From sequence record PV037056.1: a DNA stretch of 64,000 nt; one strand, given 5' to 3'. Position 1 is the stretch's first letter. Every line of letters begins with the position of its first letter. The stretch comes from Staphylococcus phage Fi4S2. Made by a program: the position numbers and the translations under genes. A model generated the notes under the pieces. The model was not told where the DNA came from. It did no database searches and worked only from the letters and a program-made list of their open reading frames with translations. This document shows positions 25,769 to 28,677 of the stretch, piece by piece.

Positions 25769-26350
25769 ATGAAATTTATATTTTTCACAGACAGTCATTT
25801 TCACTTATTCACAGACTTTAGTAAACCTGATGAGTTTTATCGTAATGACAGATTTAGAGAACAGATAGAAACTTTAAATCATGTTTTTACTCTTGCTAGA
25901 GAAAAGGAAGCTACAATTATTTTTGGTGGTGATTTATTTCATAAACGTAATGCTGTAGATACAGTAGTATATAATGAGGTATTTAAGGTATTTGCTAGAA
26001 ATAAAGATGTAGCTGTCTTATTACTCAGAGGCAACCATGATGCTACAACCAATTCAGTGTATACTGACTCAAGTATAGACACGTTTGAATACTTACCTAA
26101 TGTAAGTGTATTTCAATCTTTTGGAACTATAGAGGTAGGTAATGCAAACTTAGTATTTACAGCTTATGGTGATGAGACTGAAGAGATAAAGGACTACATT
26201 GAAGATAACTACAATACAGATAAGGTTAACATCCTTGTAGGACACTTAGGTGTAGAAGGGTCTTTAACAGGTAAAGGTTCACACAGATTAGAAGGAGCTT
26301 TTGGGTACCAAGACCTTTTACCTGATAAGTATGATTTTATTCTTTTAGGG
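25769..26350 (+). CDS. sbcD: Mre11/SbcD-like nuclease, exon 1 (194 aa)
   Basis: Calcineurin-like phosphoesterase motifs DSHFH, GGDLFH, GNHD. The exon ends ...DKYDFILLG immediately before the expected GHxH motif. Confidence 0.75.
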
Positions 26351-26750
26351 TAGATGCCCTGCTTATTCGTAAAGAGTAAGTACCGAGTGTTAAATGCTAT
26401 GAATCCGTAAAGCTAACTAAACTGAAACAGAAGAGGAAACTCTAGATGGAAAAGTTGTGAAAACAGAAAAAATTAGTTAGATGTACTAAGGTTAAATCCT
26501 AAGGTATACACAATCGGTCTATAGCAGGGAAAGACCTAAGTTCAAATGAATAAGGGAGACCCTCAACGACTATTCCGTATAGGTGACGGAAGTAAAACCC
26601 TAAACGACTGAGGGAAGAAAAATACTCCTACCTTAACTAAGGTAGAACAAATAGTCTCCACCCGTACCGAAAGGTAGGGCTATAGATGAACTATAGGATT
26701 ACAAAGTGGTGTTTGTAATCAAAGAATGTTAAATAAATTATAACTTCCTA

Positions 26751-26779
26751 TTGACATTACTTCCCTAACATGTTATAGT
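26751..26779 (+). promoter_or_regulatory. internal sigma-A-like promoter (TTGACA-17 bp-TATAGT) driving tnpB within the intron
   Basis: Perfect -35, 17-bp spacer, near-consensus -10, 22 nt upstream of the tnpB RBS (aaggaggtg). Confidence 0.5.
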
Positions 26780-26801
26780 ACATGTATAAGGAGGTGTAAT
26801 A

Positions 26802-28076
26802 ATGTCAGAAAGTACAACGTACAGAAAAATTAAAATAAGGTTAGTACCAACAAAAGAACAGGAAGAGTTAATGTGGAAGCATGTTCATGCTAGTAGATTT
26901 ATTTACAATTGGGGTCTTGAAAGGTGGTATAGTAATTTAGATAATGGAATAAAGAATACTACAAGTAATAAGTTATCTAAAGAACTAAAAACAGTGAAAG
27001 AAGAAAACCCATGGTTAAAAGAGGTATCTAATAAAACTTTAGTAAAATCATTACAAGTTCTAGAGTTTAATATGAAGAGGTTTTTTAAAAAACAAACTAA
27101 AAGACCTAAATTTAAGAGCTCTAAAAGCAGTATACCTTCTTTTAAAACACGAACAGAAACTAAGTGGGGTAATAAACATTTACCTAACATTGAAGGAGAT
27201 AGGATACGGTTAGAAAAACTAAAATTAGTTAAATTATCTTCTAAGATAACTAAATCTATGAAAGAAAAGAACATAAACCCTGTATTTTATTCTAGTACAA
27301 TCTATTATGATGGTAAATATTGGTATATTTCATTAGCATATAAAGTCGAGAACCAAGACAAAAAAGAACTCACCAATGAAACCATAGGTATAGACTTAGG
27401 AATAAAATCATTAGCTACTTGTTCAAATGGTAAATCTTATAAAAATATTAATAAAAGTTCTAAAGTTAAAAAACTAGAGAAAAGACTAACTAGATTACAA
27501 AGACAACTATCACGTAAGTATGAAATGAATAAAGATAAAATACGAGTAGGACTACTTAATACAGATGGAACACCTAAGATAGATAAGCAAGGTAGACACA
27601 TGTATAAGTATTCTAAAACTAAGAACATTATTAAGTTAGAAAAAGAGATAAAACTCTTACACAGAAAACTTAAAAATATTAGAAATAATCATGTTCATAC
27701 TATGACTAAAGAAATAGTAGAATTATTACCACAAGAAATAGTAATAGAAGATTTAAAAGTAAGTAATATGTTAAAGAATAAACATTTATCTAAACATATA
27801 AGTAAAGCTAATTGGTATGAAATACGTAGACAATTAACTTATAAATGTGAGGATAGAGGAATTCTTCTTACAATAGCAAATACTTATTACCCTTCAAGTC
27901 AAACCTGTAGTCATTGTGGTAATCGTTTAACCAAACAAGACAAACTTAGTCTTAAAGAGAGAACTTACAAATGTAAGAAATGTAATTCTAGTTTAGATAG
28001 GGACTTAAATGCTAGTATTAACTTAATGAACTATAGATACTCCAAATGGTGTCAAAATAATATAATTTCACAATAA
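26802..28076 (+). CDS. tnpB: TnpB (IS200/IS605-family OrfB) RNA-guided nuclease homolog, apparently intact (424 aa)
   Basis: Typical OrfB N-terminus (YRKIKIRLVPTKEQEELMWKHVHASRFIYNWG). RuvC-I GIDLGIKS, RuvC-II VIEDLKVSN. Zn finger CSHCGN...CKKCNSS. RuvC-III DRDLNASINL. Confidence 0.85.
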   Translation: MSESTTYRKIKIRLVPTKEQEELMWKHVHASRFIYNWGLERWYSNLDNGIKNTTSNKLSKELKTVKEENPWLKEVSNKTLVKSLQVLEFNMKRFFKKQTKRPKFKSSKSSIPSFKTRTETKWGNKHLPNIEGDRIRLEKLKLVKLSSKITKSMKEKNINPVFYSSTIYYDGKYWYISLAYKVENQDKKELTNETIGIDLGIKSLATCSNGKSYKNINKSSKVKKLEKRLTRLQRQLSRKYEMNKDKIRVGLLNTDGTPKIDKQGRHMYKYSKTKNIIKLEKEIKLLHRKLKNIRNNHVHTMTKEIVELLPQEIVIEDLKVSNMLKNKHLSKHISKANWYEIRRQLTYKCEDRGILLTIANTYYPSSQTCSHCGNRLTKQDKLSLKERTYKCKKCNSSLDRDLNASINLMNYRYSKWCQNNIISQ

Positions 28077-28233
28077 AAGAAATATATTATATGTAGGATT
28101 CCGTAAATCCGAATTTACGCCTTTGGAGTATCATACAAACCTTAGTAGAGTAATAAGAAGTAATTCTTTACAGAATGAAATACTCAAAAAGGGATACGTT
28201 GAAGAAGGAAGTTATAAATTAATTAACATACGG

Positions 28234-28677
28234 CATTATCATAGAAGACAGTATTTCCAAAACCCAAATCACTTTTATGGTGGTTCTTTAATGCAACAAT
28301 CGTTCTCAGATGAGCAAGAAGCTAATGGTGTTCACTTAATAGATACTGATACTATTACAACGGAATTTATACCTCTAGATACACGTAGGTTTATTACAGT
28401 AAGAGGAGATGATGTTCCTGAAGACCTAGACCAACTTATAGAGTATGGTCACTTCATTAGATTTGTAGGTAGTACTAACCAAGCTAAAGCGATAGAGTTA
28501 GCATCTACAGATGAGACTAATAACATACGAGTAGAGTTACAAAAAGATTATACGGTAGAAAAACGTATAGATAGTGAAGTCACTGACTCACCATTATCTA
28601 TAGCATCAAGCTATTCAGATAAGTACTATCCTGAAGCTAAAAAAGAAATACTAGAATGTCTACAGGAGGTGTTATAG
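28234..28677 (+). CDS. sbcD: Mre11/SbcD-like nuclease, exon 2 (147 aa)
   Basis: Begins HYHRRQYF... and completes the GHxH motif when joined to exon 1. The track ORF start at 28123 (MEYHTNL...) is probably intron 3' tail read-through, not coding. Confidence 0.7.
   Translation, partial: HYHRRQYFQNPNHFYGGSLMQQSFSDEQEANGVHLIDTDTITTEFIPLDTRRFITVRGDDVPEDLDQLIEYGHFIRFVGSTNQAKAIELASTDETNNIRVELQKDYTVEKRIDSEVTDSPLSIASSYSDKYYPEAKKEILECLQEVL

Follow-up and report, generated by a model that had tools for sequence, protein, structure and literature searches.

The DNA analysed here is a stretch of 64,000 nt from Staphylococcus phage Fi4S2 (PV037056.1), called the window below. The phage belongs to the Staphylococcus Herelleviridae (Twortvirinae), and its closest record is vB_SurM-PSU6, with 92% identity across the intron described in this work. 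A DnaB-like helicase gene is followed by a mre11/sbcD metallophosphoesterase gene which occurs in two pieces, and the DNA between them carries tnpB, a gene for a TnpB protein. An omega-RNA (also called right-end RNA, reRNA) had been proposed at the 3' end of this tnpB gene, with its guide supplied by the second mre11 exon. All features described lie on the + strand unless stated otherwise.

The split mre11/sbcD gene and its probable intron

Exon 1 of mre11/sbcD (25769-26350) matches the Pfam family Metallophos (E 1.7e-13) and its protein ends in ...DFILLG, while the protein of exon 2 (28234-28677) starts with HYHRRQ.... The 1883 nt between them (26351-28233), an intron with IS607-type cargo, have U as the first base and CGG as the 3' end. 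The junctions read ...TTAGGG/TAGATGCCC at the 5' side and ...ACATACGG/CATTAT at the 3' side. As GG is common to both ends (26349-50 and 28232-33), the boundary has a two-base ambiguity (...TTAGGG/TAG..., ...ACGG/CAT...), and the shared GG is the signature of the crossover site of an IS607-type serine recombinase. Joining 26350 to 28234 in silico gave an open reading frame (ORF) of 1026 nt with the frame exactly restored. This spliced ORF aligned gap-free and end to end with the uninterrupted "recombination exonuclease A" gene of Golestan-100, at 91.8% nucleotide identity and with 325 of 342 translated positions identical. The spliced junction was covered to at least 80% at one place in 345 phage records, and the three intron-less alleles inspected were all contiguous across it, by which the exon junction is confirmed. 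The predicted 3' splice site at 28233, reached after a run of ~100 nt, was thus borne out. Exon 2 is 93-100% identical to intron-less Golestan-100 in each 60-nt block, whereas exon 1 falls to 72-80% in places; this contrast may reflect a co-conversion tract left by homing.

The core of a group I ribozyme, P1-P9, was found at 26342-26679 as a full-length match to Rfam Intron_gpI (31.7 bits, E 1.9e-6). The match was obtained when the 391-nt core alone (26330-26720) was searched; the Rfam search across 3.5 kb gave no group I match. P7 R/S-like elements are present in the core. The internal guide sequence (IGS, 26353-26360) contains CCCU, which pairs with AGGG of exon 1 (P1), and GAUG (26353-56) is able to pair with CAUU at the start of exon 2 (P10). 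The 5' strand of P1 would thus be provided by TAGGG (26346-26350), the end of exon 1. Among the homologous copies the IGS covaries with five different exon ends, each fitting its own exon (CCCU:AGGG, CCGU:GCGG, CCUU:GAGG). The original prediction had assigned the 3' segment of the element to a ribozyme 3' domain as well; this part does not hold, since the ribozyme core lies wholly at the 5' end, and the 3' end shares only the AU-rich tail and the terminal bases with the intron. In phage Romulus (L058, 1476-1975) the annotated tail-lysin coding sequence has at its end a homologous group I core without tnpB, in which the sole annotated ORF has 144 nt, with the junction ...AAAAAAGG/TAAC and an IGS, CCUU, that fits AAGG.

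Downstream of the core, the 5' arm of an AU-rich long-range inverted-repeat (IR) stem (26726-26744) pairs with 28211-28229 (RNAduplex -12.2 kcal/mol). Equivalent IR stems of 18-30 bp with different sequences occur in five relatives (L005, L006, L007, L046, L052). The stem would carry the 3' splice site to the ribozyme.

IStrons of group B insert after AGGG, TGGG or GAGG, with G as the last 5' exon base and U as the first intron base (PMC4227781, PMC13565253); they end in CGG and have an AU-rich IR stem around the ORF (PMC4227781). The CGG terminus is needed in the IStron (PMC13521648). The phage element is likewise inserted after AGGG, starts with U, ends in CGG and has an AU-rich IR stem, its ORF B is of the IS607 type, and relatives are annotated beside IS607 transposases. 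No tnpA (serine-recombinase ORF A) was found within 26351-28233, where tnpB is the sole ORF of at least 40 aa on the element strand; the same applies to the copies in PSU6, SPJ2 and SapYZU04. ORF A is not defining for group B, as CsISt1 and delta-ORF A copies are devoid of it (PMC4227781). On these sequence features, the element is very probably a TnpA-less IS607-type ("group B") IStron that splits the mre11/sbcD gene of a Staphylococcus Twortvirinae phage.

The tnpB gene (26802-28076, 424 aa) is preceded by a sigma-70-like promoter, TTGACA-17-TATAGT with TG (26751-26779; 11 of 12 positions), and, downstream of it, by an AAGGAGG ribosome-binding site. The protein contains the Pfam domains OrfB_IS605, Cas12f1-like_TNB and HTH_OrfB, and its RuvC residues are intact (D198/E316/D399-401). 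Its best solved relative is 8IAZ, the ISFba1 IS607 TnpB-reRNA-DNA complex (E 4e-51), and it is 42% identical to the TnpB of the Clostridium botulinum IStron CboIStron, for which strain BKT015925 plasmid p1, NC_015417, served as the reference (Zedaveinyte et al., 10.1101/2023.11.20.567912; Mortman & Sternberg, PMC13521648). The ratio of nonsynonymous to synonymous substitution rates (dN/dS) of 0.29-0.58 points to moderate purifying selection. The last 21 codons (404-424) have an identical-codon fraction of 0.96-1.0 as compared with 0.71 gene-wide, which ranks first of ~258 windows. Synonymous variation being lowest here, this block (28011-28073), the strongest synonymous constraint in tnpB, indicates an overlapping constraint at the nucleotide level. 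A search of 28011-28056 for a putative omega-RNA promoter gave a best match of just 9 of 12.

The probable omega-RNA scaffold and the competing helix

The right ends of 21 elements from staphylococcal phages and IMG/VR contigs were compared, 16 of them in an alignment (A1). The protein-seeded locus search yielded 4 loci in IMG/VR; the protein-seeded scan of genome contigs gave no loci, its peptide patterns being too specific. The 16-mer scan of IMG/VR returned mostly chance matches, of which local BLAST left ~5 true relatives. Among the phage copies, homologous elements were found at a second mre11 site, GGDLFH (SPJ2), in rad50 (SapYZU04, KSAP7, LJLAME001), in the tail lysin gene (MRSA32), in the portal gene (Stau2, EW15, MR003) and in an unannotated gene (DH2). 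The right ends split into two families. Family A is carried by introns, and its long TnpB ends in ...NYRYSKW...; family B, of the Romulus/Twort type, is free-standing in intergenic positions and has a 369-aa TnpB. Free-standing intron-less elements with a 369-aa TnpB are found in Romulus (L050, 1266-2740) and at L048, L054 and L056, one of them beside a tRNA-Ser gene, and in the bases of the nexus hairpin and of the pseudoknot they agree exactly with the C. botulinum IStron.

The segment 28057-28233, ~177 nt, can with considerable confidence be regarded as the omega-RNA/reRNA scaffold, composed of SL1, a nexus hairpin, RAGATH-18 and an AU-rich tail, in an RNA that would run on into exon 2. The first stem-loop, SL1 (28057-28090; stem 28057-67 / 28080-90), carries the tnpB stop codon TAA (28074-28076) in its loop. 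It covaries among relatives, and it persists as a hairpin in L046, L047 and L057, where the arms are entirely different in sequence. The second, SL2 or nexus hairpin (GGAUU-CCGUA-AAUCC, 28096-28110; stem 28096-28100 / 28106-28110), shows CG and GC in a ratio of 8:8 at two pairs and AU, GC and GU at the third; its loop (28101-28105) constitutes PK-1. The RAGATH-18 module (28120-28210) begins 43 nt past the stop codon on the same strand and matches Rfam RF03064 over model positions 1-71 with 65.8 bits against a gathering score of 44.9 (E 4e-12). It comprises P1 (28120-24 / 28204-08), a kink-turn (k-turn) bulge (28125-27) and P2 (28128-32 / 28193-97), and its helices P1, P2, P2b and P3 are paired in 97.5-100% of cells in the relatives. 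In the reRNA which guides IS607-type TnpB, with AGGAG or GAGGG as the transposon-adjacent motif (TAM), RAGATH-18 forms the conserved core (PMC11061315). Therefore, the omega-RNA proposed at the tnpB 3' end has gained support from the RAGATH-18 match, the related TnpB and the presence of the same module in CboIStron, and the covariance-model check suggested for it was passed.

The AU-rich tail (28211-28228) is the 3' arm of the IR stem and is devoid of the 5' arm of the hairpin SL5. It is followed by UACGG (28229-28233), which constitutes PK-2, pairing with 28101-05, and at the same time contains the CGG of the transposon end and the terminal G of the intron. The pseudoknot between the nexus loop and the element 3' terminus is kept in all 21 sequences according to the per-sequence table, in four states: CCGUA:UACGG (the window), UCGUUGU:ACAACGG, CCAUG:CAUGG and CCAUA:UAUGG. 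A column-wise count on the MAFFT alignment under-counts it, since the intron-free family pairs one register over. For the whole scaffold, the paired fraction and three of four covariation measures exceeded all 500 shuffles and the fifth measure exceeded 498, and every measure exceeded all slid controls.

Within this region the local hairpin ccgtaaat-ccga-atttacgc had been pointed out. In the window it has 7 bp (28102-08 / 28113-19, CGTAAAT/ATTTACG), with the outer C-C unpaired. In relatives it contains A.A mismatches, 75% of cells are paired and three of five measures are no better than in shuffles; the conserved hairpin is the nexus hairpin which overlaps it. Since the similarity between copies often stops at 28210, it was also considered whether an older intron harbours a nested TnpB element with 28211-28233 as its guide. 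This was rejected, as SPJ2, whose element occupies another mre11 site, shares this tail, and all copies end in a pseudoknot-forming motif.

An 11-bp perfect inverted repeat, GATACTCCAAA at 28036-28046 and TTTGGAGTATC at 28122-28132, flanks the tnpB stop codon. The existence of this long-range helix (LRH) and its bracketing of the stop codon had been correctly foreseen; the 3' arm had been placed one base too high, at 28123-28133, and the scaffold role ascribed to the stem did not stand. The 5' arm lies inside tnpB codons 412-415, within the constrained block 28011-28073, the 3' arm lies within RAGATH-18, and the helix is extendable by pairing 28048-52 with 28117-21. Perfect inverted repeats of at least 11 nt with a gap of at most 100 nt occurred in 60 of 3000 dinucleotide shuffles of 27950-28300 (~2%), and a shuffled window of 64 kb would be expected to contain ~4.5 of them; the LRH is locally unusual yet unremarkable within a 64-kb scan. 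The naked RNA folded at -41.7 kcal/mol (z -3.07) with the LRH 5' arm and at -28.4 kcal/mol (z -1.16) without it, and partition-function folding gave the LRH a probability of ~1.0 in 9 of 10 copies. Thermodynamic folding was uninformative with regard to RAGATH-18: P2 had a probability near zero (0-0.49) in most of the copies that possess no competing helix, which would follow from the expected need of a k-turn RNA for protein.

The LRH is kept at 10-11 bp in 12 of the 13 family A phage IStron copies. In one copy the pairing is kept through G.U, and the sole uncompensated C.A is that of SapYZU04 (L007). No compensatory changes in the LRH were found; with its 3' arm frozen by RAGATH-18, covariation could not become visible. 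Moreover, the 3' arm spans three of the five P1 pairs, the k-turn bulge and the entire 5' strand of P2. Because it is identical with the 5' strand of RAGATH-18, the two folds are mutually exclusive. Family B, L001-L003 and CboIStron share the scaffold but have no LRH; therefore, the LRH is not part of the scaffold. It appears to compete, as a third pairing, for the 5' strand of RAGATH-18, which it ties up, and it stands outside the TnpB-bound scaffold. That the mature omega-RNA contains the helix as a structural component, as the original prediction implied, is thus very improbable. Its position does match the place where IS605-type omega-RNAs overlap tnpB, its conservation across the IStron copies is high, and the synonymous constraint begins upstream of it. 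Against this stand the absence from intron-free staphylococcal elements and the other lineages just named, the incompatibility with RAGATH-18, which is the TnpB-bound fold in 8IAZ, the ISFba1 reRNA that begins only downstream of the stop codon, and the missing compensatory changes.

There is nearly an even chance that the complementarity has no function at all, the 5' arm being kept as coding sequence, as a TnpB processing site or as both, and the 3' arm as RAGATH-18. The lack of covariation, the uncompensated C.A mismatch in L007, the shuffle frequencies given above (~2% locally, ~4.5 repeats per 64 kb) and the conservation of the NYRYSKW motif as protein are in agreement with such an origin. 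It is less easily reconciled with codons 404-424 being the strongest synonymous suppression in tnpB, with the free divergence of the neighbouring SL1, with the invariance of the GC-ending codons TAC and TCC, and with the confinement of the LRH to the intron-borne clade. A further, distinctly unlikely alternative is that the LRH acts as an anti-scaffold switch specific to phage IStrons. In such a case the helix would trap the RAGATH-18 5' strand in nascent or untranslated RNA before its partner is made, and an essential phage mRNA would by default be spliced. Melting or removal of the 5' arm would be brought about by ribosomes that complete tnpB or by TnpB processing upstream of SL1. This would allow RAGATH-18 and the pseudoknot to form, and the guide-RNA output would be coupled to TnpB synthesis.

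Proposed guide and target, and the proposed choice between splicing and guide RNA

Exon 2 begins exactly at the end of the proposed scaffold. Its first 20 nt (CATTATCATAGAAGACAGTA, 28234-28253), which encode the GHYH motif, would be the guide, adjoining the scaffold. On the other side of the element, TAGGG (26346-26350) sits at the position expected for a TAM; TGGGG, ATGGG, TGAGG and GGCGG take this place in other copies, and TAGGG appears to be a G-rich motif of the TAM type of this family. By analogy with the C. botulinum and ISFba1 systems, TnpB expressed from the internal promoter would bind the scaffold RNA with the first 16-20 nt of exon 2 as guide. It would then cut mre11 alleles that have no intron (TAGGG and, after it, CATTATCA...), such as the allele of a co-infecting phage, and recombinational repair would copy the element into the cut allele. 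For splicing, the tail would pair with 26726-26744 in the IR stem and the terminal G would enter the ribozyme G-binding site; the alternative partners of the tail are thus the IR stem or, in other copies, SL5. Splicing would cut the guide off the scaffold, and one transcript would either splice or become a guide. As the same 3' bases are needed for splicing and for the scaffold, the two fates of a transcript would exclude each other. This conflict, which had been noted as described for IStrons, matches the published IStron model (10.1101/2023.11.20.567912; PMC13521648).

The proposal of a guide taken from the start of exon 2 and directed against intron-less mre11 is supported by its position directly at the scaffold end and by Golestan-100, which has a perfect TAM and target, with 100% identity across the 43-nt junction. 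Since TnpA is absent, intron homing between co-infecting phages is a plausible role for the element; homing by TnpA-less IStrons was anticipated in the OMEGA review (PMC13565253).

There are, however, several observations that speak against an IStron with a working RNA-guided nuclease. With 31.7 bits the Intron_gpI match falls short of the gathering score of 50, and thermodynamic models let the LRH dominate over the RAGATH-18 fold. The absence of tnpA means that there is no excision for TnpB to counteract. In most copies RAGATH-18 is succeeded by the AU-rich hairpin SL5 and then by the pseudoknot bases; the SL5 5' arm is absent from the copies in the window, PSU6 and SPJ2 (a 13-nt gap at A1 columns 201-213), which leaves a tail of 23 nt, while the guide-proximal flank of ISFba1 has ~50-64 nt. 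In CboIStron the deletion of SL5 abolishes DNA cleavage (PMC13521648), and the stability of SL5 sets the choice between splicing and guide. Taken together with the missing SL5 5' arm, these data predict a bias towards splicing here and make the nuclease competence uncertain. Among possible targets, the intron-less allele of DELF3 differs at guide positions 9-11, and that of phage G1 has TAGGT and five mismatches; the ISFba1 mismatch data suggest, by analogy, that both would be resistant to cleavage. Finally, some sister copies are incomplete. In the portal-gene copies of Stau2 (L052) and EW15 (L049), at ~2534-2754, RAGATH-18 was undetected by Rfam and P2 has a mismatch. In L001/L003 (4159-4284) tnpB is intact and RAGATH-18 is cut to P1, with the k-turn, P2 and P3 deleted. 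The SA11 copy is missing tnpB, and the VL10 copy has a 138-nt remnant annotated as transposase.

Further details of these copies were recorded. In the Stau2 and EW15 portal copies the competing helix formed with the tnpB 3' end has remained perfect over 10 bp, and the pseudoknot between the nexus and the 3' end still covaries in L001/L003 (CCAUA:UAUGG). In the portal-gene derivative present in SA11 (L053, 2033-2700), L024 and VL10 (L057, 2140-2740) the group I core has been kept, and so have SL1, the nexus and RAGATH-18; a direct fusion joins the tnpB promoter to SL1, and the 3' end is altered (...TTACG/AAGTCC). MR003, at the same portal site, has at least the tnpB 3' end.

The same observations bear on whether the nuclease side is a relic, so that the element would be only a self-splicing intron whose TnpB and omega-RNA no longer cut DNA, the 3' region being retained for the IR stem and for 3' splice-site recognition. 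The missing tnpA, the deletion in this subfamily of the 5' arm of a hairpin required for CboIStron cleavage, the graded decay in sister copies and a dN/dS of 0.3-0.58, which signifies only moderate constraint, may all be understood in this way. Loss of the nuclease function is nevertheless unlikely, because the 424-aa ORF and its catalytic triad are intact in all eight copies examined and RAGATH-18 scores 65.8 bits. Moreover, compensatory change has preserved the pseudoknot, although CboIStron splicing does not require it (PMC13521648). The SL5-less variant occurs at two different mre11 sites, and thus was mobile after the deletion or was spread by recombination. The reading as an IStron whose TnpB would serve intron homing remains the preferred one.

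The architecture and the conflict between splicing and guide are already published, and the phage setting is the little-described part. In the literature searched, phage genome papers give group I introns, RAGATH-18 and "transposases" separately and unlinked, and the IStron papers do not treat staphylococcal phages. The local peculiarities of the phage element are the SL5-less tail and the clade-specific competing helix. One RNA end would serve as transposon end, splice acceptor and guide scaffold in essential genes of virulent phages, with no transposase. If this is true, TnpB would be an RNA-guided intron-homing nuclease acting between co-infecting phages. The natural perfect target in a sequenced relative would make a tractable system for RNA-guided homing, and the series of decayed copies together with the clade-specific helix offers natural variants for studying the choice between splicing and guide. 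The matter is also relevant to therapeutic phages, which are often annotated with "transposases".

Two other features of the window may be mentioned. A near-perfect palindrome of ~150 nt (36409-36578), centred on CCCATGGG at ~36490-36497, lies in the gap between convergent ORFs (35774-36355, + strand; 36752-37150, - strand) and may represent a terminator acting in both directions, an element resembling an origin or an artefact of the assembly. A match to the Rfam DUF3800-I RNA was found at 61680-61818 (45.5 bits against a gathering score of 44.2).

Relation to known systems

CboIStron resembles the phage element in its IS607-type TnpB, in RAGATH-18 (64.1 bits, as compared with 65.8 here), in SL1 followed by a nexus hairpin (CCAUUCGUUGUAUGG in CboIStron) whose loop is pseudoknotted to the 3' terminus, in the AU-rich terminal region, in the CGG end (CAACGG in CboIStron), in the insertion after xGGG and in the group I ribozyme at the 5' end, with splice sites that are the transposon ends. 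Its PK-2 overlaps bases needed for excision and splicing. The shared right-end module, along with the related TnpB, indicates that the phage module is homologous to an omega-RNA of shown function. The phage element differs in having no TnpA, in its pseudoknot (CCGUA:UACGG as against CGUUG:CAACG) and in its 23-nt tail without the SL5 5' arm, where CboIStron has ~44 nt with a 9-bp SL5. Furthermore, its tnpB ORF extends into SL1, an extra 11-bp helix, which CboIStron does not possess, competes with RAGATH-18, and the phage element resides in an essential gene of a virulent phage.

ISFba1 (8IAZ; PMC11061315), whose protein is the best structural relative, also has two stem-loops before RAGATH-18, a guide 3' of the scaffold and a TAM of the G-rich family (AGGAG/GAGGG, as compared with the putative TAM TAGGG here). 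Its reRNA lies fully past the ORF, starting 13 nt after the stop codon (PMC11061315), whereas the SL1 loop of the phage element holds the stop codon and the nucleotide constraint reaches from ~28011 within the ORF. The PK2 of ISFba1 joins the flank loop with the RNA 5' end; in the phage element the nexus loop is joined with the 3' terminus. No intron surrounds ISFba1.

The group B IStrons described by Tourasse et al. 2014 (BcISt1, CbISt1-4 and CsISt1; PMC4227781) share the insertion sites, the G/U start, CGG, the IR stem and an IS607-type ORF B with the phage element, and they include members without ORF A. They reside in bacterial chromosomes, plasmids and prophage-like phages of C. botulinum (PMC4227781), whereas here several copies occupy structural and recombination genes of virulent staphylococcal myoviruses. 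Like the group I introns with homing endonucleases in Twort-like phages, these copies are placed in highly conserved motifs of essential genes, and their spread would be expected to proceed by cutting intron-less alleles in co-infection. The difference is that recognition would here be accomplished by an RNA guide and a TAM instead of a protein, and that splicing itself would sever the guide from the scaffold. The omega-RNAs of the IS200/IS605 type (ISDra2) share the scaffold at the right end, the guide taken from flanking DNA and a nexus-type pseudoknot. ISDra2, however, has a T-rich TAM (TTGAT), hairpin ends for an HUH transposase and no RAGATH-18, and its TnpB is a weaker match (E 1e-34 as compared with 4e-51 for ISFba1). 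The G-rich flank, the CGG end and this weaker protein match set the phage element apart from the IS200/IS605 TnpB omega-RNAs.

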